From the NCBI GenBank assembly GCA_016710075.1, contig JADJLO010000035.1, positions 2,532 through 66,531 of the forward strand: a stretch of 64,000 bases of DNA, given 5' to 3'. How positions within the stretch are numbered: position 1 is the stretch's first letter; every line of letters starts with the position of its first letter. The notes below the pieces were generated by a model that saw nothing but the letters and a program-made list of their open reading frames with translations, did no database searches and was not told the origin of the DNA. This stretch comes from Acidobacteriota bacterium (GTDB taxonomy: Bacteria; Acidobacteriota; Blastocatellia; RBC074). Of this stretch, positions 10,389-62,229 are shown piece after piece. The position numbers and the translations under genes were made by a program.

Positions 10389-13205
<2,817 letters not shown>

Positions 13206-19246: not shown

Positions 19247-19308
19247 TGGCCTGGTGGCCCAATGGCCCAATGGCATTGCTTAAGACCTGAGACCGGCCCG
19301 CGATTGAA

Positions 19309-20646
19309 ATGAGACCGATGAAACAAATCGCAGTCATCCTGTTTATTCTCTCGATCTGTTTTCTGTGGCAGACGACTGACCGTATTGACAGAGCCTACGC
19401 ACAGAAGCGGCGCATCCCAACACCGTCAAAATACTCAAAGTTCACCCACAAATCTCACACCGGCCAGGTTAAAAGTCTGACCGACAAAACCAGGGTGATT
19501 GAAATCGACTGCGCCTACTGTCACGGCACAGTCACCAGAGACAAACTCGGCAAGGACCAGCACGATCTGTCGGCAATCGGTTATCCAAGCCACAAAAGCG
19601 GCCTTGAAAAAGAGAAGGCTCATACTGCCTGCACTGAATGTCACGTGATCACAGGCGCGGGGTTTCAGAAGGACATGTGCCTCATCTGTCACCAGCAGTT
19701 GACCGTCAACCCGAAGCAAATGGCCACCAATATTCGCCGGTTTCCGAATCCCGACGGCGATCCGAAATCACAGTTTTATGACTATTACTCTCACGGCGAG
19801 CACGTGGACTTCTTCGAACAGTACGCCACCTCAACTCCATTGAAGGAACGCGTCAAATTCTACGACCCTAAACAGGATGCAAAAGCGAACAAGGGGCTCG
19901 ACAAGAACAAATTCGAATGTTCCGCCTGTCATACTAAAAATCCGGCTCCGGTCACGGTTGCCGGAATCTCCTTCGCCGCAGGAGTCAAGATGATGCCCGC
20001 GGGACACGCCGAATGCTTCATCTGCCATCTCGATCAGAAAATCGTCACCCCGCCAAAAAAAGAGAAGCCTGATCCGAAAAACACTTTTGCGACGAACTGC
20101 ACCGGCTGCCACCAGTCATTGCAAAAACAATTGAAAGACGGCCGTCCGGTCAAGGGTTCCGAACTGATGGCCCTGCGCTTCGCCAGGCAGATCATCAACA
20201 CTGAATTGAATCCCGTCAGGCCGGGCGTCAAATCCCCGCTTCCCTACAGTCACAAGACTCACGAAGAGAACATGGGCAAAGCCGTCTCCGATTGCATCTC
20301 ATGCCACACGACGGCCAAATCGGCGAATACCATCTCTGATTTTTATCTCGAAGACAAAAAGATGAAGGAGAAGCAGCCTCCCGCTTACAGCTGCACCGAA
20401 TGCCACAAGAAGGAGATGCAGACGAAGATCGAAGGCGCCGTTACGATCGAGACGGCAAAATGCAATTACTGCCACTCGCTGCAAACGATCAGGGATTTCG
20501 CGGCCAAAGGAGCCTTGCTTCCGCCGCAGGGTCATTTCGCCAAACGACCATCAGCCGGCTCGGTTCGGCCGCCCGGCAGTCAAGCAAAAGTAGGGGCGTT
20601 TCTGTCGCTTTCACGGGCTCGAAAAGTAATCCCAACAAAGAAATAG
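19309..20646 (+). CDS. Nine-heme c-type cytochrome (secreted)
   Basis: Signal peptide; 9 CxxCH: CAYCHG, CTECHV, CLICHQ, CSACHT, CFICHL, CTGCHQ, CISCHT, CTECHK, CNYCHS. Confidence 0.85.
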   Translation: MRPMKQIAVILFILSICFLWQTTDRIDRAYAQKRRIPTPSKYSKFTHKSHTGQVKSLTDKTRVIEIDCAYCHGTVTRDKLGKDQHDLSAIGYPSHKSGLEKEKAHTACTECHVITGAGFQKDMCLICHQQLTVNPKQMATNIRRFPNPDGDPKSQFYDYYSHGEHVDFFEQYATSTPLKERVKFYDPKQDAKANKGLDKNKFECSACHTKNPAPVTVAGISFAAGVKMMPAGHAECFICHLDQKIVTPPKKEKPDPKNTFATNCTGCHQSLQKQLKDGRPVKGSELMALRFARQIINTELNPVRPGVKSPLPYSHKTHEENMGKAVSDCISCHTTAKSANTISDFYLEDKKMKEKQPPAYSCTECHKKEMQTKIEGAVTIETAKCNYCHSLQTIRDFAAKGALLPPQGHFAKRPSAGSVRPPGSQAKVGAFLSLSRARKVIPTKK

Positions 20647-20662
20647 CTTGTTTATTTAAATA

Positions 20663-21643
20663 ATGCAGAACTTAAAGATAAAAACTCTGATCCTGCTTTC
20701 GTGCCTTATCGGCAGCCTGATGCTGATTGAGGCTTCAATGGCTCAGCAACAGACGCCTGGTGTCGCGCAGCAGAAACCAGTTGATTACGAGAAATTCACC
20801 CACAAGTCTCACACAGGAAGCGTCAAGGTTCCCGGCACGGGCGCATTCAGAGACCTCAAGTGCGATTCCTGCCACGACCGCCCTGCCGACAGGGAGATAT
20901 CCGGCGGCATCGTTCAAACCACACCACGCAACAAACAATTAAGCCTGAAATTCCCGGGCCATAAAGCATGCGCCGAGTGCCACATCGCTCAGTTCACGAC
21001 TCGGCCGCAACAGACCTGCACCATCTGCCACGAAACCCGAAACGGTCTCAACGCCAGACCGCCGCAACGCGACTTCCCTCAGCGATCCGATTTCAATGCT
21101 CTGTTTGACGCTAAACAGCACGAGCTGCACGCCGGCTACATCCTGCCTCAAACCGGCAAGAAGACAGATTGCGGCTTCTGTCATAAGCAGGACCAGAGAC
21201 CCGCAGTCCTGACGATTGCATCGCATCCGGAATGTTATGCCTGCCACTCACCCGGCAGCCAGGATCAGAAGGGTAAATTGAAATCCGGTTGCATCGTCTG
21301 CCACACGCAAGTCGTGCCTGCAGCACAGCCTTTCTCCGCGAAATACGTCAGCAGGGCCTACGGCGCGAAATTCACCCATAAATCTCACGTCGAACACATG
21401 GGCAATCGCTGCGATATGTGCCACACCATCTCCGCGGGCTACAATCAGCCGGCTCCGACATCTCTCAAGGTAAAGCAACACAACACAACCGCCGAAAAGA
21501 GCGGCCGCGGATGCTTCACCTGCCACGACGGCGGCGTCCATTTTGGACGGAAAGTATTCTGCGCAGAGCCGGGATGCGAGGGCGGTGGGTCATGCCAAAA
21601 ATGCCACACCAGAAATGATTTCAAGGTCTTCCCGTCTTCGTAA
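20663..21643 (+). CDS. Nine-heme c-type cytochrome (paralog of 19309-20646)
   Basis: Signal peptide; CDSCHD, CAECHI, CTICHE, CGFCHK, CYACHS, CIVCHT, CDMCHT, CFTCHD, CQKCHT; shares N-terminal EKFTHKSHTG motif with the upstream paralog. Confidence 0.85.
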   Translation: MQNLKIKTLILLSCLIGSLMLIEASMAQQQTPGVAQQKPVDYEKFTHKSHTGSVKVPGTGAFRDLKCDSCHDRPADREISGGIVQTTPRNKQLSLKFPGHKACAECHIAQFTTRPQQTCTICHETRNGLNARPPQRDFPQRSDFNALFDAKQHELHAGYILPQTGKKTDCGFCHKQDQRPAVLTIASHPECYACHSPGSQDQKGKLKSGCIVCHTQVVPAAQPFSAKYVSRAYGAKFTHKSHVEHMGNRCDMCHTISAGYNQPAPTSLKVKQHNTTAEKSGRGCFTCHDGGVHFGRKVFCAEPGCEGGGSCQKCHTRNDFKVFPSS

Positions 21644-27585: not shown

Positions 27586-28332
27586 ATGGGACTTTGAGAC
27601 GGAAAGATTGCGCTCATCACAGGCGGCTCCCGTGGAATCGGACGGGCACTTTGCGAGGTATTTGCGCGCGAGGGCGCCGATATTATTTTCAACTACAACT
27701 CGAGCGACGATCTGGCTCGTGAGGTCGTTGAAAAGATCCAATCGATGGGGCGCAAAGCTGTGTCCTACAAGGTTTCGGTCACGGATCGCCCGGCGATCAA
27801 CAAGATGGTCCGCGAGATCCATCACCAGTTCGGCCGGATCGACATTCTGGTCAACAACGCGGCAATCAACCGCGGCGACAACTTCGCGACGATGACCGAG
27901 CACTCATGGCACACGGTGATCGATACGAATGTCAACAGCCTCTTCAACGTCACCAAGCCGGTCTTCAAGCACATGCTGCGTCAGCGATCGGGACATATTC
28001 TCAATATCAGCAGCATCGGCGCGATTCGAGCCTTGCCGACCGCCGTGCATTACGCGACATCCAAGGCCGCCGTCATCGGCTTCACCAAATGCCTTTCCCG
28101 CGAGGCCGCTCCATTCGGCGTCATCGTCAACGCCATCGCTGCCGGCATTTTCGACACGGATCTTTCTGAGGCCCTGCCCGAGAGAATGCTGGAAATGCAT
28201 AAATTCTGGTGCTCCCGCAACAGGCAGGGACAACCTGAGGAACTGGCGGAATTCGCCGCCTTCATGGTCTCCGATAGAAACTCCTATATGATCGGTGAAG
28301 TCGTTACTGTCGACGGCGGCAGCGTGACTTAA
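27586..28332 (+). CDS. Short-chain dehydrogenase/reductase (FabG-like); in-frame TGA at 27595-27597 right after the ATG
   Basis: MGL(TGA)DGKIALITGGSRGIGRALCEVFAREGADIIF...NISSIGAIRALPTAVHYATSKAAV (YxxxK) ...VVTVDGGSVT. Confidence 0.75.
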
Positions 28333-31807: not shown

Positions 31808-32722
31808 CTATCCTCCCGCCAGATAGACATATCTGAGGATGAACAGCACAGCGAGAACATAGACCAGCGGGCGGACTTCTCTCGATCGCCCGGTCATGAT
31901 CTTGAGGATCGGATAGAAGATGAAGCCGATCGCGAGACCGTTGGCTATTGAGAAGGTCAGCGGCATGGCGATGATGGTCAAAAACGCCGGAATCGCTTCA
32001 GTGATGTCGTTCCATTTTATATCGGCGACGGCGCTGATCATCAGAGCGCCGACGATGATCAAAGCCGGCGCTGTAGCGATTGGTGGAATCGCACCCGCAA
32101 TCGGTGAAAAGAAGACCGCCATCAGGAAAAGCAGGCCAACCACAACCGCAGTCAGGCCCGTTCGCCCGCCCTCGCTGACTCCGGTCGAGCTTTCGATATA
32201 GGTGACCACAGTCGATGTCCCCAGCAGAGAACCGGCAATAGTCGCAATCGCATCGGCAAACAATGCACGATTGACGCGAGGCATCCTGCCCTCCGCATCG
32301 AGATAGCCCGCCTGACGCCCCAGCCCCATCAAAGATCCGATCGTGTCGAAAAGATCGACGAAAAGAAAGACGAAGATGACGTCGAATACTCCCAGCCTGA
32401 GCGCGCCTTTGATGTCGAGCTGCAGAAAAGTCGAGCGCACATCCGGCATCTGAAACAGGCCTGTTGGAGGGCTTGAAACCTTGAGCAGAATCGAAAACAG
32501 CGTCACCAGAATTATCCCTGTAATGATTGCGCTTCGATACCCGCGCGCCAGCAGCGCAGCCGTGACAAGGAGCCCTCCGAGCGAGAGCAGCACCGGCTTC
32601 GTCATTATATGACCGAGAGTTACAAACGTTGCCGGCGAAGAGACGATCACCCCGGCATTCTTCAATCCAATGAATGCAATGAACAACCCGATGCCGACGG
32701 CAACGGCCGTCTTCATCGTCAA
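31808..32722 (-). CDS. NCS2-family nucleobase permease (AzgA/guanine-hypoxanthine permease-like), C-terminal part
   Basis: MTMKTAVAVGIGLFIAFIGL... multi-TM, characteristic of NCS2. Confidence 0.75.
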   Translation of the reverse strand: MTMKTAVAVGIGLFIAFIGLKNAGVIVSSPATFVTLGHIMTKPVLLSLGGLLVTAALLARGYRSAIITGIILVTLFSILLKVSSPPTGLFQMPDVRSTFLQLDIKGALRLGVFDVIFVFLFVDLFDTIGSLMGLGRQAGYLDAEGRMPRVNRALFADAIATIAGSLLGTSTVVTYIESSTGVSEGGRTGLTAVVVGLLFLMAVFFSPIAGAIPPIATAPALIIVGALMISAVADIKWNDITEAIPAFLTIIAMPLTFSIANGLAIGFIFYPILKIMTGRSREVRPLVYVLAVLFILRYVYLAGG

Positions 32723-33143
32723 TCGGTATCGCGTCGACTATCATCGCGCGGATGCGCGCCAGAGTCAGTATCAGGAAGACCACGCCTGAAATGAAGACAG
32801 CTCCGAGCGCCACGTGCCAGTCATAGCCCATCCCCTTCACGACGCTGTATGTGAAATAGGCATTGAGCCCCATTCCGGGCGCAAGAGCAAAAGGATAGTT
32901 TGCGATCAACCCCATCATCAGCGAACCGATAGCCGATGCGATGCACGTGGCAAAGAGCGCCCCTGAAAACGGGACTCCCGCTTCGCTCAATATCGCCGGA
33001 TTGACGAAGATGATGTAGGCCATCGTCAGGAATGTAGTCACCCCTGCGGCAACCTCTGTGCGGATTGTCGTCTTGTTCTCGGTAAGCTTGAATAGCCGTT
33101 CGAGTGAATTGGTCAGATATGCCTGTGTCACGCCGACTCCCAA
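32723..33143 (-). CDS. NCS2-family nucleobase permease, N-terminal part (frameshift ~32725)
   Basis: MGVGVTQAYLTNSLERLFKLTENKTTIRTEVAAGVTTFLTMAYIIFVNPAILSEAGVPFSGALFATCIASAIGSLMMGLIANYPFALAPGMGLNAYFTY... Confidence 0.7.
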
Positions 33144-33156
33144 TTGCTGCGAGGTG

Positions 33157-33624
33157 CTATTTCATCCACTCATAGACCAGGTAGTGCTCTCCATCCATTC
33201 CCAGCCGCGTGTATACTTTCTGCGCGGTGGTGTTTCGTCTGTCGACGTAGAGCCTGATGCCGCGGACACTCTCGTCGTGCCGGGCAAGATCCTGTATGTA
33301 TGCATAGAGCCCGGCATAGATTCCCCGGCCGCGCATTTCAGGTATCACATAAACGCTTTGGATCCACCAGACGACGCCGTGGCGCCAGTCGCTCCATTCA
33401 TAGGTGATCATCGTCGAGCTGATGACACGCCCGTCCTTCTCGCAGACGAAATACCGGCCGTGGGATGGATCATCAAAGACCTCATTGACTCCCTTCGTAC
33501 ATATCGCGCGATCAAGCACGACATCTTCCGTCTCAAGCGCCATGGCTATTTGAAATTCGATGATGGCAGCGGCATCAGTTCGCACCGCCGAACGATATTT
33601 GATTTCAGACATTCCCTCAGACAT
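33157..33624 (-). CDS. GNAT-family N-acetyltransferase
   Basis: 155 aa; ...WIQSVYVIPEMRGRGIYAGLYAYIQ... acetyl-CoA binding motif. Confidence 0.85.
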   Translation of the reverse strand: MSEGMSEIKYRSAVRTDAAAIIEFQIAMALETEDVVLDRAICTKGVNEVFDDPSHGRYFVCEKDGRVISSTMITYEWSDWRHGVVWWIQSVYVIPEMRGRGIYAGLYAYIQDLARHDESVRGIRLYVDRRNTTAQKVYTRLGMDGEHYLVYEWMK

Positions 33625-33688: not shown

Positions 33689-34060
33689 ACGAAAAATTTA
33701 ATAACTGATGTTACGCAAATAAGTATTTCTGAATCGGTTTGACACGTTCTTTTGAAGTAATTCAAACAGCCGGCGAAGCCGGCAGCAAGATGTAGCCCAG
33801 GGGTGGAGCGAGGCGAAGCCGAGCGGAACCCCGGGCAGTGCTGAAAATAGAACTCAAGCCCACGAAGTGGGCGGCAGATTTAGGGCCAAAGATTTAGTGG
33901 CTATTTTTCTGTCGCGCGTTTCACGGGCTCAGAATGATGTTGATTACGATACCCAGGGTTCGCTCGGCCTTCGGCCCCCTCCCGGGCTACATGCTGCCAC
34001 CCGCTTCGCGGGTTGTGGACTAGTCAAATCAAGATAGAGAATGTTCCGTGCGTAACATCA
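33689..34060. mobile_element. Putative non-autonomous MITE-like element with ~20-bp terminal inverted repeats (TTAATAACTGATGTTACGCA) and an internal ~45-bp imperfect inverted repeat
   Basis: Left TIR 33689-33712, right TIR (reverse complement) 34036-34060; internal IR atgtagcccaggggtggagcgaggcgaagccgagcggaaccc (33790-33845) vs 33925-33985; no ORF; a solo copy of the TIR core at 52449-52465. Confidence 0.45.
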
Positions 34061-34133
34061 GTTAATAATGGCAAGCCGCATTTTTTCGAGGATATACAAA
34101 GATCTGAAGGTTCTCGTCCATTGATCGCATGAT

Positions 34134-34175
34134 TGTTTTCGTTTGTTTCGTTTATTTCGTCTGTTTCGTAATCTT
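34134..34175. repeat. Partial (single-arm) copy of the AGATTACGAAACAGACGAAA MITE-like family
   Basis: gttttcgtttgtttcgtttatttcgtctgtttcgtaatcttc matches right arms of copies A/B. Confidence 0.5.
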
Positions 34176-34184
34176 CTTTTTTTC

Positions 34185-34925
34185 CTATCCCCGGAACTCC
34201 GCCAGCACCGGAACATCGTTTCTGTCGAGCAGTTCAAGCGCGGCGGCGATAACCTTGTGCTGCAATTTCGGGTGATCGGGCATGCCGAGCGGAAATCCCA
34301 TGCGAAAATTGGCGAACAAGGCGCGTGGAGGCCTGATAATTTCGGTGACCTCACGCAGCAGAGTGATCGAAACCGTGCGGATTCCCTCGCGTTCGATTGC
34401 AGCCTGAACCAGACCGACCGTCTGGATGCACATGGGTCAGACAGGCGTCAGAAAGGCCACATCGACACCGTCATCCCGCAGCATGCGCGCCACCCGGGGC
34501 GCTGTCTCTTCAATCAGCGCCCCGGGGCCGACGATTGAGCCCATGAAGCTGAAGTGACGATGGTTAAGCGCTCCTATGATTCCCTGCTGCTCGAGTTCAC
34601 GAAACCGGTCCAGAGGAAAGGCGATATTCTGATCGGCCTCCACGCCGCTGTGATCGAATGAACTGCTTCTGTGGGACTCAATCAGCGTGGCCACATCGAC
34701 CGTATTGGGTATCTCTCGGAACGACGGATCGCCTTTCTTGATCGAATGATCGAAATCTTCCTGCTCCGGCAAGCGAAAACCGGCAGTAGTCACCAGCGCA
34801 AAGCGCGAGTGGCTCAGCGGCTTTTTCAAAGGCGCACAAGGCACGGGATCGATCGTATACCGGGAAAACGGATAGCCTTTCATGAAAAGCCTGACATACA
34901 ATGCCAGATCTGAATAAGTTGCCAT
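34185..34925 (-). CDS. PrdB/GrdB-family (glycine/betaine/D-proline reductase selenoprotein B-like) selenoprotein; in-frame UGA (34437-34439) read as Sec in T-P-V-U-P-M-C
   Basis: ORFs 34437-34925 and 34185-34433 are in the same frame separated only by TGA-CCC; joined protein ~245 aa: ...FALVTTAGFRLP...SFREIP...FPLDRFRELEQQGIIGAL...HFSFMGSIVGPGALIEETAPRVARMLRDDGVDVAFLTPV-U-PMCIQTVGLVQAAIEREGIRTVSITLL...; matches my recollection of the PrdB layout (ALVTAAG...SFRVIP...FPIDRL...FMGG...GVDAVLLTAG-U-GTC...AIEEAGIPTI), recalled from memory and not checked. Confidence 0.7.
34404..34428 (-). promoter_or_regulatory. Candidate bacterial SECIS hairpin
   Basis: mRNA: UGA CCCAUGUGCAU CCAGAC-GGUCG-GUCUGG; 6-bp stem starts 11 nt after UGA, apical loop contains G and U, spacing like fdhF SECIS. 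Confidence 0.5.
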
Positions 34926-34952
34926 TGTTTTATTTTACAGCGTTTTCATCGG

Positions 34953-36455
34953 GTGTGCAGGCGAGGAGGGGGTACGAGCTCTAATTCTTTCATGATAATC
35001 TTTGACGGATTTATGAGGATCAACCTTAAGTTCATCATTACTTTATTGCTGATTCTGGTTTCGGCCATCGCCGCTCCCGGAACGCATGGCTTGGTGAATG
35101 GGCAGAATCCGGCCCAGCCTGCCGCGGCGCCACTTATTGACGCTTACGACCCGGCACACATCAACGGACTCGTATTCATCACTGGAAATCAAGGCAAGGC
35201 CAATATATTCGGAATTCGAATTCTGGTCTATCGTCAGGGAGAGCAGATCGACGACTCCCCGGTATCTTTTAATTTCGGGCCGCATTCTCCGAACGGGTCT
35301 TATGCCGCCGTCAACTGGGTGACCAGGCTGGATGAAAAGACCCCGGTAAATTTCCGCTGGAGCCGCTCGAGTCAGAATGGGGTGATCGGGCAGGTGACCG
35401 CGTCTTCAAACGTCAGAATAGCGATTGAGCTTTACAGGCCGTGGATCGACACTGGTGGAGTGCAGCAACAGGCCATCTTTCAACCTCAGCCGGATCGAAG
35501 GACAATTCTCGGTGAGCAGGTTCAGAACCGAATGACCTCTCCGGCCAACAAGCGGTTTCTGTTTAAATCGGATCGCGATTCGGCCGGAAACGCCGGTTAT
35601 GAAGACGCCACGGCTATGCGGGAGATGCTTGTTAAAGATGGACAGGCGCAGCAAATAACCACTGCAGACGGATCCGGCTTATTTCTTCATGCCTTGCTGA
35701 GCTTCGATTTGAGCACGAATTCGACCATCGGTTTTGTGGCCATGGTCGGAGATAGCTTCGACGAGATGGAGCGGGAGGCGATCAAATCGCTTCAACAACC
35801 CGTCAACGATCAGCTCGATCGGGCGGATAAAAACTATCAAACAACGCGAACCGCCGGCAGCGGGGCCTCCGGCGACGGATTCGAGGCGTTAAACCGCATC
35901 GTCTGCTGGAATCGATTTTATGACCCCGTGAACAGGTCCGAGTACCTGTCGCCGCATCGAACCCCGGGAAGATCATTAAACAGCGTCGATAAGATTTCCG
36001 GGAGCACAGTCCTCGGATGGGAGTCGTTCCTGTTTGCGGCAATGGGAGCGATGATCGATCCGGAAACTTCCGTATCGACCGCCCGCCGAATTCTTGAAGG
36101 CCAGATGAGCGACGGACGTGTCCCGCTGCGCATATCTGCCGGAAGCAGGTCGCGCGGCGAACCGGAAGTTTTAGCCGGACGTTCGATGCCTCCGATTGGC
36201 GCACTTGGCGTGTGGAAAATATATCTTGTTACCGGCGATATCAGCCTGCTGGCAAATGCCTTTCCACGGCTGCTTAAATGGAATGACTGGTGGCTGGCCA
36301 ATCGCGGGGACGGACAGGCATGGAGAGACGGCAATTCTGACGGGCTGCTTGAATTGGGCTACGATCAGGAACTTGAACTCGGCTCGCTTATGCGCGCGCA
36401 GCGTACCCGCACCAGTGCAGCTCAAACAGGCATTTTCGGAATCAGGGCTCGCTGA
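34953..36455 (+). CDS. GH63-like (alpha/alpha)6-barrel glycoside hydrolase (MGH1/YgjK-like), N-terminal part; signal peptide; frameshift ~36350-36420
   Basis: MRINLKFIITLLLILVSAIAAPG signal peptide; N-terminal beta-sandwich region. Confidence 0.55.
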   Translation: MCRRGGGTSSNSFMIIFDGFMRINLKFIITLLLILVSAIAAPGTHGLVNGQNPAQPAAAPLIDAYDPAHINGLVFITGNQGKANIFGIRILVYRQGEQIDDSPVSFNFGPHSPNGSYAAVNWVTRLDEKTPVNFRWSRSSQNGVIGQVTASSNVRIAIELYRPWIDTGGVQQQAIFQPQPDRRTILGEQVQNRMTSPANKRFLFKSDRDSAGNAGYEDATAMREMLVKDGQAQQITTADGSGLFLHALLSFDLSTNSTIGFVAMVGDSFDEMEREAIKSLQQPVNDQLDRADKNYQTTRTAGSGASGDGFEALNRIVCWNRFYDPVNRSEYLSPHRTPGRSLNSVDKISGSTVLGWESFLFAAMGAMIDPETSVSTARRILEGQMSDGRVPLRISAGSRSRGEPEVLAGRSMPPIGALGVWKIYLVTGDISLLANAFPRLLKWNDWWLANRGDGQAWRDGNSDGLLELGYDQELELGSLMRAQRTRTSAAQTGIFGIRAR

Positions 36456-37500
36456 CCGCCCGCAGTGGACCAGCGAAAATGGGGTCAGACTCAACGAGAA
36501 GACCCACACGGCCGAGTTCACTCCGGTTGGGCTCAATGCCCTTTACGCGCTCGATACCGAAATGCTGCTGCAGATCGCCCGCGAACTCGGCCTTACAGAA
36601 GATGCTGAAAAGCTCCGCGCCCGATACTCGTCGCTCAAGACAAAGATCAATGCCGATCTATGGAGCGAGGAGGACGGTCTCTATCTCAACAAGGACTGGG
36701 ATGGAAAATTCTCTCGCCGAATCTCGCCTGAAAATTTCTATCCATTGATTGCCGGGTTGCCGGATGAAGGCCGGGCAAAACGCATGATGGAAACTCTGCG
36801 CCGGGCCGACAAACTCTGGGGTGAAACCATTATCCCAACCATCTCCCGCGATGATGCAGCATTCTCGGCACAGACTGTGGGTCGTGGCGCAATCTGGTCT
36901 TTGATGAACTACCTTTTATATCAGGGCCTGAGGCGGTATGCCTTCAACGATCAGGCAGGCGAACTCGCCGCGAAAAGCAACCTGCTGTTTCGGACCCAAT
37001 GGGAAAAGACCGGCAGAGCGTATGATCACTTCTCGAGCGACGACGGCAAGCCGGTCGATCCCGAACAGCCATCTATGCACCAGTCCATTCCCGGCCTGAT
37101 GCTGTGGCCTGCGATCGAGGAGATCATCTATGCCGATCCCTGGGCAGGTTTTTCAGTTGGGAGCGTCAAGGCAGCCAATGAGTCGCGGCTTGACCGGATC
37201 AGATTCGGCGGCTTCATCAACGATATCATCTCGGGCCCCAAACGGACCGTCATCCGCAGATCGGGCAAAACCGAAGTCGAATGCGAAGGCCCCGTCAGGC
37301 TGAGATCATTTCGCAGCACCGAGGCTGTTACGGCTTTTGCAATTGAATCGGGCGCGCAGGTCCGCGTTCTGATTCCGGCAATCGAGGGAAGAAAGATCAC
37401 CGTCTCTGTCGATGACATAATCATCGGCAGCACCGCCCCGGGGGCTCCAGCCAGCTTTAAAGTCCCCGCAGGTCAACACAGAGTCTTCATCGTAAAATGA
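36196..37500 (+). CDS. GH63-like glycoside hydrolase, C-terminal catalytic (alpha/alpha)6 part
   Basis: ...GLNALYALDTEMLLQIARELGLTEDAEKLRARYSSLKTKINADLWSEEDGLYLNKDWDG...TVGRGAIWSLMNYLLYQGLRRY...; last 55 codons duplicated at 52955-53090. Confidence 0.6.
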   Translation: MAHLACGKYILLPAISACWQMPFHGCLNGMTGGWPIAGTDRHGETAILTGCLNWATIRNLNSARLCARSVPAPVQLKQAFSESGLADRPQWTSENGVRLNEKTHTAEFTPVGLNALYALDTEMLLQIARELGLTEDAEKLRARYSSLKTKINADLWSEEDGLYLNKDWDGKFSRRISPENFYPLIAGLPDEGRAKRMMETLRRADKLWGETIIPTISRDDAAFSAQTVGRGAIWSLMNYLLYQGLRRYAFNDQAGELAAKSNLLFRTQWEKTGRAYDHFSSDDGKPVDPEQPSMHQSIPGLMLWPAIEEIIYADPWAGFSVGSVKAANESRLDRIRFGGFINDIISGPKRTVIRRSGKTEVECEGPVRLRSFRSTEAVTAFAIESGAQVRVLIPAIEGRKITVSVDDIIIGSTAPGAPASFKVPAGQHRVFIVK

Positions 37501-41300: not shown

Positions 41301-41422
41301 AATATTCCCTGGCCGCTGCGATCGAGGCCGCTGCCGGCCGGCCGCGCCACTTCCTCCGCCATGAGTGTCACGCCGGTGAGAATGACTAACAAGCTGATGA
41401 TGGTGGTGATGGTTGTTTTCAT
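38375..41422 (-). CDS. CRTAC1-family protein: N-terminal PHB-depolymerase-like esterase + FG-GAP/VCBS repeats + C-terminal ASPIC/UnbV domain
   Basis: Signal peptide MKTTITTIISLLVILTGVTLMA; LQRRYLVHVPKKYAADRPTPVILVFHGGGG...GLSNGG (esterase); many DxNxDGxxD FG-GAP repeats; C-terminal HWLRVRFSG... Confidence 0.75.
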   Translation of the reverse strand: MKTTITTIISLLVILTGVTLMAEEVARPAGSGLDRSGQGILEPGEHTRTVTVGSLQRRYLVHVPKKYAADRPTPVILVFHGGGGNPESMVRLSGMNTKSEEAGFIVVYPFGTGALDNNRLTFNGGGCCAYAMQNKIDDVGFTRALLDDLAKVANVDTNRVFATGLSNGGIMAYYLASELSDRIAAIAPVGGPLMMDACRPRRAVSVMHFHGTADEFAPFNGGFGKGAAGAKGVTDFKSVDHSIQNWVKANGCNDKPEIVALPDKADDGMRVTRKTWGGGKDGTEVVLIEIEGGGHTWPGMEPPAWLGKSTKDILANDLMWEFFQKHPMKPSAVTKPSVPQNQPPASKPASDNAPGKLKALPDSDATRDAAGTGQMFEAIHVPGFTDFREGLNGFALGDFDKNGYLDILTVTTEPFALDATWADETGGVKRTRNPKDKLRLLLNFGGFRLQAQAVTLTGSAATPDDLSQGWRGGQVPALADFNGDGLLDIFITRQAPMSNGKIREGFKPVGCSLFLSDGRLDRFRDVSVEYGALNEMAYNRQVSLGDVNRDGFIDIALGADNIVNAFEGLPKSALLVFQPKDGKFAGGRFTDIGGTDLIPDFGGFYHDSARDKAGPNLALRDIDNDGDLDLIQSTHVLLIAAQPPTLPFSPAEYRHGIFNWRNLLAESGRFQFEKVTDNGFACEARLRYDRNVERLVPMTEARAPGLPYLFFGDVNNDGLLDALAVGGGDPFNRPATEDVGARFWYNRGGFRFEEATAKSGLARLNQSYREWFAFFDAAPSDAIKAFNPAARKIRSQPGLTPKNPFDNRALYSDAVFADFNNDGWLDIVVFDRLESPAIETRSFLFLNRGDGTFEPQPTTISGLNGTGICGAAADLNNDGLLDLIIAADPDNTGVASDPHRYESMVFMNAGTRGARENHWLRVRFSGVSDAQLLGASVEVREPGTNRLLGMRGIYSNQGYKSSSALEAHFGLGKIGRVNLEVRLPGGRKVKVANVAADRYLDLNLKEGTARKVEVK

Positions 41423-42297
41423 TGTTTCTCCTTCAGAGCTGTCCGCGTAGAACGAATCGGTGTTGCCGTTTGCGTCCATGATAAGTCACGGAGGAATGGC
41501 GCCTGCAATACGGCATCCTCGTAAAACGGCCTCGGCGCCCAGGTACTTTTCAACGTCATGTGATTACTGCCCATGCTGTGTAGCCAGTAACCTGGCAGAT
41601 TGGCAAAACGCGCGTGGGGACTGCGGATGACTTCCAGCTTGCCGGTCTGCCGCGTCGCGCCTGTTGTGGCGGCGCCACGTAATGAAGCGGGCACGGCGGC
41701 GCGCCATCCCTCTTTCAGTGTCTTGCGCATTTCGGCCAATACCGGCGCGGCTTTCGGATCATTGACCAGATTGGTGAATTCGTGTGGATCGGTCTGATGA
41801 TCGTAAAGCTCCGCCGTCATTTCATCGCCCCACTCAGTGTAGCGGTAACGCTCCGTGCGCACACTTCGCCCCATCAGGTTACGCCGCGCGAGCGTTGTGA
41901 ACGCCGCTTTCTTCCACGCCTGTTTGGGATTGTCGAGCAACCGCGCGAAGCTCAGGCCTTCGACACCCACGGGCGCGGGCAAGCCGCAGAGTTCCGCCAG
42001 CGTCGGATAGATATCCACGAATTCCACGAGTCGTGGTGAAACAACATTCGCGCGTTTTTTCGGCGCGACAACAATCAGCGGCGCGCGGGCGCATTCTTCA
42101 AACAGTGTCAGCTTGCGCCACAGGCCGCCGTGTTCGCCCAGGTGAAAACCGTGATCGCCGATGAAAACGATGATCGTGTTGTCGCTCAGCTTCAACCGAT
42201 CCAGCGTGTCGAGCAGAATCCCGACTCCGGCATCCATCAGCGAAGTCGCCGCGTGATAGGCTGCGATGGCCTGCCGCCGTTGCGCGTCGGTCAACAC
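41419..42297 (-). CDS. Sulfatase, C-terminal part
   Basis: ...NTIIVFIGDHGFHLGEHGGLWRKLTLFEECARAPLIVVAP...; tail of ORF is out-of-frame extension overlapping the next gene. Confidence 0.75.
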   Translation of the reverse strand: MLTDAQRRQAIAAYHAATSLMDAGVGILLDTLDRLKLSDNTIIVFIGDHGFHLGEHGGLWRKLTLFEECARAPLIVVAPKKRANVVSPRLVEFVDIYPTLAELCGLPAPVGVEGLSFARLLDNPKQAWKKAAFTTLARRNLMGRSVRTERYRYTEWGDEMTAELYDHQTDPHEFTNLVNDPKAAPVLAEMRKTLKEGWRAAVPASLRGAATTGATRQTGKLEVIRSPHARFANLPGYWLHSMGSNHMTLKSTWAPRPFYEDAVLQAPFLRDLSWTQTATPIRSTRTALKEKQ

Positions 42298-42317
42298 CTC
42301 ATCGCCGGAATGATGCG

Positions 42318-43169
42318 TCAGCGCAGGCGCGGGAATGTCGGCGCGGTCATTGGCGGGTGTGGCGGGAAGCGGCGCATGGCCTGCGGATAAAGGTCAAAAT
42401 ACTTTTTCGGCGCGATCCACGGCAGGTGCGGTTTGTGAAATCCGGCGGCGATGAAAAACGGTTTGTCCTGGTTCGCTTCGAGCAATTTGGCCACGCGGCG
42501 CGCCGTATTGCCGTCGGGTTCGTCTTCGTCTTTGGTGTTGGTCGCCCGCCAGGTGAGCGGCACGCCGCCTTCATCGCCGGGCTTGAGTTGCTTGAGCAGG
42601 GCGTCGCGCGACAGCCCCGTGCGCCCGCGATAATTCATCCGCTCGGCATCCGGCGGTTTGGTGCGGTCAGCCACTTCCGACCCGTCTTCGTCGGGCACGA
42701 AATAGGCCGACGGGTCAGCGTCTTCCGATACATCCCACGAAACCAGGCTGTTGTAAGTGTCGTGCGGAATCTTGCCGATGCGCGCGGTGAAATAGCCGTG
42801 CTGTTTGAAGTATTCCGGCAACATCACTACGTCTTTCAGATTCGTGCGCGGGTCGGTGGCATTGTTGTAGATGCGCGTCGTTTCGGGGCGGCGGCCGCTC
42901 AGGAATGACGTGCGCGACGGGCTGCACAACGGATACTGGCAATAGGCGCGGTCGAATTTGACGCCGCGTTTGGCGAGCCGGTCGAGATTGGGCGATTTGG
43001 TGATCGCGTCGCCGTAGGTGCTGAGCGAAGTGTTCAGATCATCGGCGACGATGAACAGCACATTCAGCTTTTTCGTTTGTGGCTGTGCGACAGTGCGCTG
43101 AAGCGCGACACCAGCACAGAGGGCGAGGATGGAAAGAAACGCAGCGGATAATTTTAAGATCTTTTGCAA
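42318..43169 (-). CDS. Sulfatase (Cys-type, formylglycine motif), N-terminal part; frameshift ~42300-42360
   Basis: Signal peptide; LNVLFIVADDLN...CQYPLCSPSRTSFLSGRRP (C-x-P-x-R). Confidence 0.8.
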   Translation of the reverse strand: MQKILKLSAAFLSILALCAGVALQRTVAQPQTKKLNVLFIVADDLNTSLSTYGDAITKSPNLDRLAKRGVKFDRAYCQYPLCSPSRTSFLSGRRPETTRIYNNATDPRTNLKDVVMLPEYFKQHGYFTARIGKIPHDTYNSLVSWDVSEDADPSAYFVPDEDGSEVADRTKPPDAERMNYRGRTGLSRDALLKQLKPGDEGGVPLTWRATNTKDEDEPDGNTARRVAKLLEANQDKPFFIAAGFHKPHLPWIAPKKYFDLYPQAMRRFPPHPPMTAPTFPRLR

Positions 43170-43788: not shown

Positions 43789-45837
43789 TCAAAAATACAG
43801 TTTCAGTGCAAACTGCATCTGCCGCGCATCTTCTGCTGCCAGCAACCGTCCGAAATTCGCTGAGCCCAGAACCGAAACCGGCGTCGTGAAATTCGTGCGA
43901 TTGAAAACGTTGAAGCCCTCAACGCGAAATTGCAGCCGCATCGTTTCGGTAAATTTGAAGTTGCGTTGCAACGACACATTCGTGCTGAAATGACCAGGCC
44001 CGCGCAGGTTCGAAAAGGTGCGCGGTGAATTGCCGAAGGTGTATTGCGGCGGTGCCTGGAACGCGGCGGTATTGAACCATTGCAACGACGTTTTCCGTTG
44101 GGTCGCGTCGGCAATCACGGGATCGCCAATCAGATTCGGACGCAAACCACCCACTGCCGCAGTGCTGCCAACAAAGGCCAGGCCTTGCAAGCCATTGCTC
44201 ACCGCCAGAATGTTGAGCGGGAAACCGCCTTGCGCCTGCACAATTGCGTTGACGCCCCAACCGCCTACGATTTGCCCGATCACGCCTTCTTTCAACCAGC
44301 GCCGGTCGTAGCCGAACGGCAGTCGCCACGTCACGTTGCCGATGAAGCGATGCCGCACGTCAAAGGTCGAAAGCCCCTTGTTATCGCGGCGGTTGTAGTA
44401 ATTCTGATAGTTCGGATTCTGAATCGTCGGCCCGGCAGAGATGGACGACACGTCGTCAATCGTCTTCGCGAACGTGTAGCTGCCGTTGAAGAGCAGGCCG
44501 TCGCTGAAGCGCCGCTCGACACGCAGTTGCAGTGAATGATAGGTCGCGTGCGATTCGTTCATGTTGTACGACACGACGTTGCCGAATTGCGGGAACGGGC
44601 GCAGCAATTGTCCCACCGACAGGGTTGCCCGTCCGAGGATCGAAGTCGCTGCCGGACGCTGATCTGCGGGCAACGTCAAAAACGGATTCGCCATCAGCGT
44701 ATTCAGCACCGTCGCGCCCAGCGCCACCGTTTCCGGCGTCAGTTGATTGAGGTCGGTTGGCCCCGAAAGCAAGCCAATACTCGCGCTGCCTGCGTATGCT
44801 GCTTGAACTTTCAAATGCCACGGCAATTCGCGTTGCAAACTCAGATTCCATTGGGCGATTTTCGGCTGGCGAATGTCGCGCACTTTGACCGGCAGCGATT
44901 GTTGCCCGTAGCCGTAAAACGCGCCGGGGAAAGTAGCGGGAACTTGCACGATGCCGTTGGGAAATGGATTGCTCAGGCTCGTGCCGGGCGTCGGTGTGAC
45001 GTTGTCGAGCGAGGCGATGAACGGCGTTTCGCCAATGTCTGATAGCGCGTAGGTCGCCGTCGAAAACCCGCCGCCGGAATTTGACGCATAGAAAATGCCG
45101 CCGCCCGCGCGCAACACTGTCTTGTCATCCAGCTTGAACGCGAGTCCGATGCGCGGCCCCCAATTGTTCAGGTCGCGGTCGAATTGCTCGCGGCTGCTCA
45201 CGCCGTTGCGACCAATCGGAGTGACCGTGCCGCGCATGTTGATCGTGCGCGTGCCGAGGTTCGTGGCGGCGGGAAAGGCTACGGAAAGGCTGCTGACCGG
45301 GAACTGCCCGTTGCGGTCGAAATTCGTCAACCGATTGAAGCGTTCTGTGTTGCCTAAATCCGCTTCCCAGCGCAGCCCCAGATTCAGCGTCAGCCGGTTG
45401 TTGACCTTCCAATCGTCCTGCGCAAAAAAGGCGTAGTACAGATTCTGCACCGCCGGTTGTGGCACAATCGCCAACCGCCCCGCGTTCGGATTGCCGAGCA
45501 GCAACGACGCGACGGCATCGCCCGATTGCGTGTCGTTCGCCGTGCGCGCCGTGAATCCGCGTGTGAAGGTGAAGTTGCCCGCCGGGTCATCAGGCCGATA
45601 GTTGTAGATGCGATAGGCGCGCTGGTTTGCGCCCAGCTTGAACGAATGCGCGCCCTGCAACAGGCTCACATCCTGATTGAGCGTGAAGGTGTCCTGATTA
45701 TTCAGCGCGTTGCCAAAGCCGCGCGTCGGGCCGAGCGTGGTGTAACCCGCCACGGTGGTGCTCGGAAAGACACGTGTATCGCCTGAGGCCTTTCGCCAGA
45801 TACGCCGGAAAGCCGAGCGTGGTGAGATCGAAGCCAT
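43789..45837 (-). CDS. TonB-dependent receptor, C-terminal beta-barrel part
   Basis: Long beta-barrel, ends with C-terminal aromatic ...QFALKLYF. Confidence 0.8.
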   Translation of the reverse strand: MASISPRSAFRRIWRKASGDTRVFPSTTVAGYTTLGPTRGFGNALNNQDTFTLNQDVSLLQGAHSFKLGANQRAYRIYNYRPDDPAGNFTFTRGFTARTANDTQSGDAVASLLLGNPNAGRLAIVPQPAVQNLYYAFFAQDDWKVNNRLTLNLGLRWEADLGNTERFNRLTNFDRNGQFPVSSLSVAFPAATNLGTRTINMRGTVTPIGRNGVSSREQFDRDLNNWGPRIGLAFKLDDKTVLRAGGGIFYASNSGGGFSTATYALSDIGETPFIASLDNVTPTPGTSLSNPFPNGIVQVPATFPGAFYGYGQQSLPVKVRDIRQPKIAQWNLSLQRELPWHLKVQAAYAGSASIGLLSGPTDLNQLTPETVALGATVLNTLMANPFLTLPADQRPAATSILGRATLSVGQLLRPFPQFGNVVSYNMNESHATYHSLQLRVERRFSDGLLFNGSYTFAKTIDDVSSISAGPTIQNPNYQNYYNRRDNKGLSTFDVRHRFIGNVTWRLPFGYDRRWLKEGVIGQIVGGWGVNAIVQAQGGFPLNILAVSNGLQGLAFVGSTAAVGGLRPNLIGDPVIADATQRKTSLQWFNTAAFQAPPQYTFGNSPRTFSNLRGPGHFSTNVSLQRNFKFTETMRLQFRVEGFNVFNRTNFTTPVSVLGSANFGRLLAAEDARQMQFALKLYF

Positions 45838-47410
45838 CCGAGAACTGTGTCACCCGATTATTAAAGCGCGTCACACCCGCGTTGAAATGCGCGACTACGC
45901 GCGGCGAGGCCGTCCAGACGTAATCCAGCACCAGCGACACCGGACGGTTTGTTACAAACGGACCGCCCTGCGTTCCGGCGATGGAGCCAGGAAACGGCCC
46001 GGCGTTCTCAGTGGAATTGAAATCCTTGATGATGCGCCCGTAAACCAGGTGTTTCTGCGAGAGGTTGTAATCCAGCCGCACGACCATCTGATTTTCAGTA
46101 TTGGAAATGGGCGAATTCACGACGTAGTTATTGGTGAAGCCCGCGCGATTTGGCAGCGGATAATAGGCCGCGAGGTTGCGCCCGACGACATTCTGCTGTG
46201 CCCGGGGAATCACGTTGTTCGCAAAAACAATGCGCGATCCGGCGCCGGGCTGCCCGGCAGCCACCAGCGCGCCCGGCACGTAAATCATCCCAACGCGCGC
46301 CGGAATCAAGGCCCCGCTCGTGTCGCGCACATTGACGCCTGTAATCGCCGCGCCGAGCAGTTCAGAAAAATCGCCGTCGCGTTGTTTAAGTGTCGGCACA
46401 TTCGATTGCCGCAACTGCGCCTGCCGCACGCGCAACGCCTCATAGTTGAAAAAGAAAAACAACTTGTCGGATTTCTTCACCGCTGGGCCACCCGTGCCAA
46501 AGCGCGGCAGATAGACGGGGCCACCCAGATTGCCGCCGAATTGGTTGAAGCGGAATTTGCTTTTTTGCAAGCCCGTCTGATTGACGAAAAAATTAGTGGC
46601 ATCCAACGCATCATTGCGCAGAAATTCAAACAGCGTCCCACGCACTTTTGTCCCGCCCGAACGCACCGAAAAGTTGAGCGAGCCGCCGCCCGTGCGCCCG
46701 TATTCCGACGAGTACGAATTGGTGATGATGCGGAATTCCTGAATCGCTTCGGGTGAGGGCCGCAAACTCGGCAGGTTGTCGGCTTTGTTTGTGACCGGCA
46801 CGCCGTCCACCACGATTTCATTCGTCAGCGTGCGTCCGCCATTAATCGAAAGTTCGCCGACGCCGCCTGCGCCTAGACTGGGAATCGCGCTGCGCGATCC
46901 CGGCGAACTGCTGACCCCTGCTTCGAGCTGAGCGAGCTGAAAGACATTGCGCCCGTTCAACGGCAAATCGTCTATCTGTGTCCGTTGCACGACCCCGCCG
47001 AGCGCGCCCGACGCCGTGTCGAGTTGCAATGAGGCTTCGCTGGCGGTCACGGTGATAGTGTCGGTGATGTTCCCGGGTTGCAGCACGATATTTAGCTCAG
47101 CGTTTTGCGCAACAGCCAGCTCAAATCGTTCAAGCTTGTAGCTCTTGAATCCTTGCGCCTGCACTTCCAGCGAGTAGCCGCCAGTTTCCAGGAAAGTGAA
47201 GTTGTATTGGCCATCGCCTCTAACAGCAAAGGTGCGTTTCAGCCCGGTCGAGGCCTGAATCAAAGTCACGGTCGCGCCAGGGGTGACGTTTCCAGTGCCG
47301 TCAGCCACCGTGCCTCTGAGCGTAGCCGTGGCCGTTTGCGCGAAGCCGGCGCTGGTTAAGCCAACCAGCAAGAACAACGTAACAAGGACGAATTTATCCA
47401 GTTTAGACAT
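45698..47410 (-). CDS. TonB-dependent receptor with N-terminal carboxypeptidase-regulatory-like domain, N-terminal part (frameshift ~45700-45840)
   Basis: Signal peptide MSKLDKFVLVTLFLLVGLTSAGFAQTATATLRGTVAD...; plug region DDLPLNGRNVFQLAQLEAGV... Confidence 0.8.
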   Translation of the reverse strand: MSKLDKFVLVTLFLLVGLTSAGFAQTATATLRGTVADGTGNVTPGATVTLIQASTGLKRTFAVRGDGQYNFTFLETGGYSLEVQAQGFKSYKLERFELAVAQNAELNIVLQPGNITDTITVTASEASLQLDTASGALGGVVQRTQIDDLPLNGRNVFQLAQLEAGVSSSPGSRSAIPSLGAGGVGELSINGGRTLTNEIVVDGVPVTNKADNLPSLRPSPEAIQEFRIITNSYSSEYGRTGGGSLNFSVRSGGTKVRGTLFEFLRNDALDATNFFVNQTGLQKSKFRFNQFGGNLGGPVYLPRFGTGGPAVKKSDKLFFFFNYEALRVRQAQLRQSNVPTLKQRDGDFSELLGAAITGVNVRDTSGALIPARVGMIYVPGALVAAGQPGAGSRIVFANNVIPRAQQNVVGRNLAAYYPLPNRAGFTNNYVVNSPISNTENQMVVRLDYNLSQKHLVYGRIIKDFNSTENAGPFPGSIAGTQGGPFVTNRPVSLVLDYVWTASPRVVAHFNAGVTRFNNRVTQFSDGFDLTTLGFPAYLAKGLRRYTCLSEHHRGGLHHARPDARLWQRAE

Positions 47411-53340: not shown

Positions 53341-53619
53341 CATTCCGTTTTCAGACAGCGAGTAGAGCTTCATCCATCCGGTGCGGCCCGGCGGAATCGC
53401 CGACTCGAATCGCGGAGCCGTCCTCGGGAAGCTGTTTGAGAGGCTGTTTCTCAACTGGCAGCCTCCGGTGATGTTGAAGCTGTAGCCCTGCTCGACGTCG
53501 TCGTAAAGCAGACCGAAGATCGTGCCCAGAGTCAGACCGCCGGCCGAAAGATTGCCTCCGAAGCGGTTGATTATCAGCATCGTGTCGTTGCCGTCGCCCT
53601 TTGCCGGGAGGTTGTCCAC
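53206..53619 (-). CDS. Giant Gly-rich Pmp/PbH1-like surface protein, C-terminal domain (piece 6 of one ~9.5-kb gene 53206-62781)
   Basis: ...[42 protein letters not shown]; in another frame from 53574-55859, overlap 45 bp. Confidence 0.6.
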
Positions 53620-58800: not shown

Positions 58801-59133
58801 CCATCCCGCCGCCTCCTCCTCCGGAGTTGCCACCAGCGAAGCCACCGCCGCCGCCGACGCCGCCGTTGGATCTGAACCCGCCGCCGCCGCCGCCGAACCC
58901 GCCGCCACCGCCGTTGGAAGCGCCGATACCACCGCCGCCTGCGAACCCGCCGCCGCCCCCTGGAGGGCCTGCTGCTCCACCCCCACCGCCGACACCGCCA
59001 CCAGCTCCGCCACCACCGTTGGGCGCCCCGCCACCGAAACCGAACGCCCCCCCGGCCCCGCCGGCCCCGAAGTTGCCTCCGCTGCCTCCGCTGCCTCCGT
59101 CGCCTCCGTCACCAAAACCGGAGCCAAGTCCGC

Positions 59134-62229
<3,096 letters not shown>

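Follow-up and report, generated by a model that had tools for sequence, protein, structure and literature searches.

A conserved in-frame UGA followed by a SECIS-type hairpin points to a selenoprotein of the GrdB/PrdB superfamily in Blastocatellia

Results and discussion

A single reading frame interrupted by TGA

We analysed a stretch of 64,000 nucleotides from an Acidobacteriota bacterium of the class Blastocatellia (GCA_016710075.1, contig JADJLO010000035.1, positions 2,532 to 66,531; hereafter the window), on the minus strand of which lies a 246-codon frame with one TGA as its sole interruption (Table 1). Translation gives 162 residues, the TGA, a further 83 residues and a TAG stop, and hence a 246-residue product when the TGA is read through, with selenocysteine (Sec, U) as residue 163 of the motif T-P-V-U-P-M-C-I-Q-T-V-G-L (in local sequence, ...DVAFLTPV-U-PMCIQTVGLVQAAIEREGIRTV...). 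The initial annotation, made from the DNA letters without database searches, had described two open reading frames (ORFs) sharing one frame across this TGA and a T-x-x-U-x-x-C motif spanning it, both of which are borne out by translation. It had also anticipated that pipelines would call two short ORFs, as indeed they do: the ORF listing gives pieces of 162 and 82 residues, and GenBank holds the same pair as MBK7600663.1 (162 residues) and MBK7600662.1 (82 residues, the post-UGA segment), both named 'hypothetical protein' (IPJ07_19970). The exact 162- and 82-residue products in GenBank come from wastewater Acidobacteria metagenome-assembled genomes (MAGs).

Comparative evidence that the UGA is decoded

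More than 1000 relatives emerged from a search of 5.8 billion proteins. Among the best 120, which were inspected, 112 are about 162 residues long and end exactly at the UGA, and eight are full length. At the UGA column, seven of these full-length proteins have Cys (CPMC or CPFC), the residue that an alignment with Cys-containing homologs, proposed as a check in the initial annotation, was expected to reveal. The eighth, P0001 (locus L097, JGI contig Ga0683611_0454898, gene 284-1021), has Trp at this column; its contig carries TGA there, so the Trp is an artefact of translation with an alternative code, the gene caller having apparently used a table in which TGA encodes Trp. Other Trp and Gly residues at the Sec column in public protein sets (e.g. 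P0145, P0148 and P0212) may have the same origin. An exhaustive profile search against 1.84 billion cluster representatives (clusters at 50% identity, E <= 1e-3) retrieved 2933 clusters, 151 of them at E <= 1e-30. Within the top 150 clusters, 50 have Cys at the Sec column, mostly as CPxC, 31 end exactly at that column and a further two dozen or so end one residue ahead of it; from where they end, we read the last two groups as Sec forms. A minority carries S, G, W, D or T; TGA artefacts probably account for part of the W and G cases.

At the DNA level, one genome was scanned for each GTDB species and relatives turned up in 480 genomes, of which the best 80, all of them Blastocatellia/Pyrinomonadaceae MAGs, were analysed. 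Together with sister MAGs and the window, the best ~80 species genomes gave 91 loci, and in all 91 the codon at the UGA position is TGA, with the frame remaining open for 82-95 codons beyond it. Per-site diversity at codon positions 1, 2 and 3 was 0.24, 0.14 and 0.53 after the TGA, compared with 0.21, 0.16 and 0.54 before it. None of 84 unique sequences contained an in-frame stop within the 66 codons after the TGA, compared with 65-68 of the 84 in each of the other two frames. As judged from this pattern of variation, purifying selection is shown to act on the post-TGA codons just as it does on the upstream 162, and the TGA at codon 163 is shown, in evolutionary terms, not to be a terminator. 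Elsewhere in the window TGA is an ordinary stop, terminating 11 of 27 well-supported genes and thus the commonest stop there; the genetic code is therefore standard and the recoding gene-specific. The locus accordingly has what marks a bacterial selenoprotein gene, an in-frame UGA standing over the Cys of homologs and a coding frame conserved downstream, in a phylum from which selenoproteins have already been recorded (PMC1794560).

A SECIS-type hairpin in the coding region

In the bSECISearch consensus for bacterial selenocysteine insertion sequence (SECIS) elements, the loop lies 16-37 nt from the UGA, with G in its first two positions. The initial annotation had proposed a hairpin, CCAGAC-GGUCG-GUCUGG, beginning 11 nt after the UGA; we located it on the minus strand exactly as described, to the base, with its loop beginning 17 nt after the UGA. 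Both the position and the loop G-U fit, by analogy, the SECIS elements of Escherichia coli fdhF and of Moorella as well as that consensus. In an ungapped alignment of 74 distinct sequences, where the six pairs correspond to columns 15-20 with 26-31, 98.2% of cells were paired and three of the six pairs showed compensatory changes: one, at the base of the stem, occurs as C-G, G-C and U-A; a second as G-C and A-U, with the wobble position of a Gln codon paired with the first position of a Leu codon; and a third as A-U and G-C, at a Thr -> Ala change. The observed covariation, which involves synonymous sites, was reached by none of 500 shuffles, pairing fell to 14-40% when the stem register was slid, and RNAalifold independently predicted the same stem, all of which favours the SECIS-like nature suggested at the outset. 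Positions 2-3 of the loop (G-U; alignment columns 22-23) are invariant. The stretch thus combines the attributes by which a SECIS is recognised, namely a stem-loop shortly past the UGA, a G in the apical loop and a conserved structure.

Like the fdhF-type SECIS of E. coli, the hairpin lies within the coding region, 11 nt past the UGA, and presents an apical-loop G-U; unlike it, only the 6-bp upper stem is supported here, a bulged U was not recognised and the existence of a lower stem is doubtful. The candidate for such a stem (columns 5-9 with 42-46) showed 77% pairing and little covariation, and was not adopted. Among Cys forms, used as a control, the close relative P0003 at locus L091 (TGT at the Sec position) keeps all six pairs, and the hairpin has decayed in most of the more distant Cys forms checked, which keep 5, 3, 2 and 2 of the six. 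P0003 (L091 10001-10879) is close to the Sec forms in L088 and L089, and by its sequence looks like a recent Sec-to-Cys conversion retaining a fossil SECIS.

Family assignment and predicted structure

The Pfam search proposed in the initial annotation matched PF07355 (GRDB) at 32.5 bits against a gathering score of 22 (E = 7e-8), aligning residues 24-160 with profile positions 210-345 of 347. The GRDB profile reaches no further than the Sec and so leaves the last 83 residues outside any Pfam domain; presumably it was built from UGA-truncated sequences. The best NCBIfam match was PrdB (TIGR04483, E = 1.2e-37), over model positions 20-219 of 238, so that the post-UGA segment can be aligned with the PrdB model as far as position 219. 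The score of 129.6 bits is under half of the equivalog cutoff of 300, and scores also fell below the cutoffs for TIGR01918 (44.1 against 65.45 bits) and TIGR01917 (35.6 against 602). The assignment to the PrdB/GrdB family made in the initial annotation therefore stands at the level of the superfamily and fails at that of PrdB orthology.

In clostridial D-proline reductase, PrdB is the selenoprotein subunit (Kabisch et al. 1999, cited in PMC1088965), and a UxxC motif is given for it in PMC9312934. The window protein resembles it as a single domain of about 240 residues, 246 here, with Sec in a UxxC motif (U163-P-M-C166) at the same relative position, in its best profile match over 200 residues, and in carrying a bacterial SECIS-type hairpin directly past the UGA; it differs in its low score, in the lack of nearby prdA, prdC and prdDEF genes, and in its host, an acidobacterium rather than a Stickland-fermenting clostridium. 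Towards GrdB, GrdF and GrdH (reference models Pfam PF07355, TIGR01917 and NF040794/5), homology including the Sec position is confined to the C-terminal half, at about positions 209-412 of models 431-435 long, with 36-53 bits against cutoffs of 600-800. Those selenoproteins B are two-domain proteins of about 430 residues with UxxCxxC, whereas the window protein is without the ~200-residue N-terminal domain, has U-P-M-C-I-Q-T with no third Cys, and its gene has no grdA, grdE, grdC or grdD neighbours. On these profile comparisons, the product is a single-domain member, of PrdB length, of the GrdB/PrdB 'selenoprotein B' superfamily, and belongs neither with the orthologues of PrdB nor with GrdB.

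The AlphaFold2 model, for which 50 sequences were aligned and X was set in place of residue 163, reached a mean predicted local distance difference test score (pLDDT) of 96.2 and a predicted template modelling score (pTM) of 0.94, and folds the two halves as one compact domain. The predicted fold is Rossmann-like alpha/beta, with U-P-M-C at a strand-to-helix junction: U163 is placed in the loop that follows strand 156-160, and helix 165-179 has C166 in its first turn. In the model, the two residues are thus arranged as is classic for a redox-active (U/C)xxC pair. A thioredoxin-fold oxidoreductase was considered and rejected, no thioredoxin fold being found around the (U/C)xxC. D98, E178 and R201 are invariant, and D66 and R70 nearly so, which suggests a charged ligand. 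A sequence search of the PDB found no relative of the window protein.

Some relatives depart from this single-domain layout. Five Cys members of 380-420 residues (P0126, P0130, P0134, P0143 and P0153) have an extra C-terminal region of about 150 residues, and a Pfam scan of the family members of this size found no domain in these extensions. In P0184 an N-terminal HTH_3 DNA-binding domain is fused to the GRDB-like domain, and P0204 shows a weak match to the Pfam UGSC family around its CxxC, a hint, from that one alignment, that the C-terminal region of GRDB is distantly linked to the UGSC selenoproteins.

Proteins of this kind have been met before. In the Sargasso Sea, a 'proline reductase PrdB' family with UxxC was the third most abundant selenoprotein family, with 42 genes (PMC1088965); in the Global Ocean Sampling data, too, a PrdB family (pfam07355) ranked high in abundance among selenoprotein families, with 235 Sec and 110 Cys members (PMC2398784); and PrdB UxxC selenoproteins are listed for Anaeromyxobacter and Geobacter uraniumreducens (PMC1794560). 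These surveys class PrdB-type UxxC selenoproteins as thiol-oxidoreductase-like and abundant outside Clostridia (PMC1088965, PMC2398784, PMC1794560); recent reviews describe the clostridial enzyme alone (PMC9312934, PMC13188914). The window protein shares with the survey family the pfam07355 match, the UxxC motif, the Sec/Cys alternation and an origin in non-Stickland organisms from oxic environments, and most probably belongs to the same broad family, the two being likened here by published descriptions rather than by sequence alignment. It differs in that the survey reports are marine and deltaproteobacterial, whereas the Blastocatellia clade has a synteny of its own, described below. In the literature searched, no paper addressed the Blastocatellia clade and nothing specific was found for 'PrdB-like' or Blastocatellia selenoproteins. 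Nonetheless, the idea of a PrdB-like selenoprotein standing alone is less new than the initial annotation implied, the metagenome families having preceded it.

Gene neighbourhood

Pfam scans of the window ORFs of at least 150 residues detected no PrdA/GrdE, GrdA, PrdC, SelA, SelB or SelD, in agreement with the isolated position described in the initial annotation. Likewise, about 100 homologous neighbourhoods contained no PF09338-type partner, PrdC, PrdDEF or GrdA/C/D, and the pyruvoyl subunit was never present; the clustering with prdA (the pyruvoyl proprotein) and prdC/prdDEF that characterises PrdB is absent from these loci. Partners were sought instead by ORF clustering around 97 loci and by sampling five Cys-form neighbourhoods. 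A permease of the NCS2/Xan_ur_permease family was the most frequent same-strand downstream neighbour (40 of ~97 loci), adjoining the selenoprotein gene with 2 nt between them in L007, and a GNAT acetyltransferase recurred beside the gene in 30 of ~97. The Blastocatellia synteny block runs from a UDP-sugar dehydrogenase and a divergent MGH1-like glycoside hydrolase through the selenoprotein gene to GNAT, NCS2/Xan_ur_permease, SDR, MGDG synthase and radical SAM genes; in L007-L010 a betaine-type OpuAC ABC permease takes the upstream place instead. Judged by gene order, the Blastocatellia gene is probably in an operon with the GNAT and/or the NCS2-type permease gene. Cys forms of other lineages occur in unrelated surroundings: a DsbH-type thioredoxin adjoining the gene, with Pyr_redox_2 at a distance of about 7 kb, a PHO4 transporter together with Pyr_redox_2 in convergent orientation, and a CoA-transferase with a TRAP transporter. 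At L091, the DsbH-type thioredoxin gene lies directly upstream of the P0003 gene, in divergent orientation. No family-wide conserved partner emerged among the sampled neighbourhoods, the GNAT/permease synteny recurring in Blastocatellia only.

Table 1. Coordinates of the predicted selenoprotein gene, its elements and other features of the window
Feature	Position	Strand	Remarks
Predicted selenoprotein gene	34925..34185	minus	ATG at 34925; Sec-UGA 34439..34437; stop TAG 34187..34185
ORF before the TGA	34437..34925	minus	162 aa
ORF after the TGA	34185..34433	minus	82 aa
In-frame UGA, probable Sec codon	34437..34439	minus	Residue 163 of U-P-M-C; TGA in 91/91 loci, Cys in homologs
Codon of the putative resolving Cys166	34430..34428	minus
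Post-UGA coding segment	34188..34436	minus	83 codons; helix after UxxC, invariant E178 and R201
SECIS-type hairpin CCAGAC-GGUCG-GUCUGG	34409..34425	minus	First base 11 nt past the UGA
Hairpin, 5' arm	34425..34420	minus	CCAGAC
Hairpin, loop	34419..34415	minus	GGUCG
Hairpin, 3' arm	34414..34409	minus	GUCUGG
Sigma-70-like promoter match TGCACA-16-TAAAAT	34932..34959	minus	Directly upstream of the ATG; weak evidence
9-nt tandem repeat	34137-34169		Directly past the stop codon of the gene
MITE-like insertion	33698-34068		371 bp
Nested 46-nt inverted repeat	33766-33811 with 33971-34016		Within the MITE-like insertion
GNAT acetyltransferase gene	33157..33624	minus	Downstream of the selenoprotein gene; Pfam Acetyltransf_1, E = 1e-13
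NCS2/Xan_ur_permease-family permease gene	31808..33143	minus	Frameshifted here; 440 aa in sister MAG L002
Split or truncated genes	34953-37500; 31808-33143; 680-2036; 41419-43169; 43789-47410; 27745-28332
Multihaem cytochrome c gene cluster	10389-13205 and 17189-21643		Cytochrome c7/c3 domains
Ig-like/PKD-domain protein	53574-55859		761 aa
Two consecutive ORFs	55856-62229	minus	1138 and 1031 aa

In this strain, an insertion resembling a miniature inverted-repeat transposable element (MITE) separates the selenoprotein gene from the GNAT gene and may have uncoupled them. Its tips are perfectly inverted over 20 nt, TGCGTAACATCAGTTAWTAA; it also has 46-nt imperfect terminal inverted repeats, and a second inverted repeat is nested inside. 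Found once only in the window, it is shared with L003 and absent from L001, and L002 has at the same site a shorter insert of about 140 nt that is only partly alignable. The 9-nt repeat TTTCGTTTG downstream of the gene comprises 3.7 copies, and the array is 18 nt shorter in the sister MAG L001. Two promoter-type sites were found in all, compared with 1.6 expected in shuffles, which is not above chance. In the window, ARAGORN reported no tRNA and Rfam no match at gathering thresholds.

Many window genes (among them those for glycoside hydrolase, permease, OEP, sulfatase, TonB-receptor and SDR) are broken into overlapping pairs of ORFs or truncated relative to sister MAGs, where the MGH1-like glycoside hydrolase (828 residues, L002), the permease (440) and the SDR (248) are intact; this pattern points to an assembly prone to indels, probably from long reads, and not to true pseudogenes. 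Unrelated to the selenoprotein, the cytochrome cluster also encodes an HbpS-like protein with a haem-degrading domain and a 938-residue LVIVD-repeat protein with a cytochrome c3 motif. The two long consecutive ORFs, which adjoin the Ig-like/PKD-domain gene, had no Pfam match at E <= 1e-4.

Weighing the selenoprotein reading

Taken together, we give a probability of about 0.85 to the locus being one gene for a genuine selenoprotein of the GrdB/PrdB superfamily. Several observations weigh against this reading or its functional extension. None of selA, selB, selC (tRNA-Sec) or selD lies in the 64-kb window, and an ARAGORN scan of 1.28 Mb of homolog flanks found no tRNA-Sec. RNA folding, suggested as a check in the initial annotation, did not single the hairpin out: in a 66-nt single-sequence fold the hairpin is not the minimum free energy structure, and the fold is no better than shuffles (z = 0.84), for which reason the hairpin is judged on covariation. 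Part of the stem conservation is attributable to the protein, since the stem overlaps the conserved Q-T-V-G-L codons. Neighbourhoods outside Blastocatellia are mutually unrelated, and the link to GNAT and permease may therefore be inherited synteny rather than function. Finally, chemistry and substrate are argued purely by analogy, in a subfamily with no solved structure or characterised member.

The alternative that fares best, though it is improbable, is a true PrdB serving a D-proline (or glycine/betaine) reductase, with the gene for the PrdA/GrdE partner at some other place in the genome. PrdB is the best NCBIfam match over most of the model, length and UxxC agree with PrdB (PMC9312934), and the relative L007 adjoins a betaine-type OpuAC ABC transporter. 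Yet the match falls far short of the equivalog cutoff and also under that of the TIGR01918 subfamily; Stickland reductase genes are normally clustered (PMC13188914), whereas no such partner was found in the window or ~100 neighbourhoods, and the Blastocatellia neighbours are GNAT and permease instead. Somewhat less probable still is decoding of the UGA without Sec, by a code reassigned to Trp or Gly or by a tRNA, of suppressor or SelC* type, that brings in Cys or Ser. Some database translations do show W or G at the Sec column, and Acidobacteria carry unusual allo-tRNAs with suppressor potential (PMC5389517), but the DNA has TGA for the single 'W' that was checked (P0001), and the many window genes that end in TGA indicate a standard code. 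Moreover, a covarying hairpin at SECIS distance with a conserved loop G-U is what SelB-dependent decoding predicts, and Sec/Cys alternation at UxxC is typical of selenoproteins.

That the TGA is a genuine stop, leaving either a truncated, decaying pseudogene or two independent genes of 162 and 82 residues, would agree with the two ORFs annotated by all pipelines and with the lack of Sec machinery in the window, but is very hard to reconcile with a TGA fixed in every locus, a downstream frame open in 84 of 84 sequences with variation dominated by third positions as upstream, Cys-containing homologs that are continuous proteins, and a model in which both halves form one compact domain; we consider it effectively refuted. 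An assembly or sequencing error for TGC or TGT has a negligible chance, since, for all the apparent frameshifts of this indel-prone MAG relative to sister genomes (glycoside hydrolase, permease, OEP, sulfatase and TonB-receptor), its errors are indels and not substitutions, and the same TGA in independent short-read and long-read assemblies, in ~90 genomes and many metagenomes, excludes a substitution error.

For the selenoprotein reading we propose the following scheme. The hairpin would act as a bacterial SECIS bound by SelB-GTP-Sec-tRNA(Sec), delivering selenocysteine at the UGA. The U163/C166 pair would alternate between the selenol/thiol and the selenenylsulfide state. As argued from analogy to PrdB/GrdB, the selenolate may attack a small and probably charged substrate at an electrophilic atom, the substrate possibly being held by D98, E178 and R201 together with D66 and R70, after which Cys166 would resolve the adduct to the selenenylsulfide and a thioredoxin-type system would re-reduce it. 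As the protein appears to work without a pyruvoyl subunit (PrdA/GrdE), it would be a stand-alone selenol/thiol reductase and not a subunit of D-proline reductase. Any specific chemistry, drawn as it is from analogy, is offered tentatively and at well below even odds. Bolder, and unlikely in our estimation, is the possibility that stand-alone PrdB-like proteins constitute a distinct class of selenium-dependent reductases without a pyruvoyl partner, acting on a small metabolite handled by the co-oriented NCS2-type permease and the GNAT. It draws on ~2900 clusters at 50% identity and on a Sec form fixed throughout Blastocatellia, and one conceivable reaction is that an imported compound, nucleobase-like or an N-substituted amine, is cleaved reductively. 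If true, it would represent a new selenoenzyme reaction outside anaerobic Stickland metabolism, in aerobic soil and wastewater Acidobacteria.

Conclusion

The selenoprotein finding does not overturn current understanding: UxxC PrdB selenoproteins outside Clostridia were already listed between 2005 and 2008, and the window gene is a well-supported further member. Its immediate consequence is for annotation. Hundreds of copies of the gene are stored in GenBank, IMG and ENA as a 162-residue fragment and an 82-residue 'hypothetical protein', some public copies carry a spurious Trp at the Sec position, and the conserved post-Sec third, with the putative resolving Cys, E178 and R201, is invisible to domain annotation that stops, as Pfam GRDB does, at the Sec. 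Merging the two fragments corrects the annotation and lets the gene serve to mark the use of selenocysteine in Blastocatellia, a class that is common in soil and activated sludge. With Sec universal, close Cys converts, conserved synteny and a confident structural model, the Blastocatellia clade offers a clean system in which to test the function of non-Stickland PrdB-like proteins, a question that dates from the surveys of 2005 and 2008.

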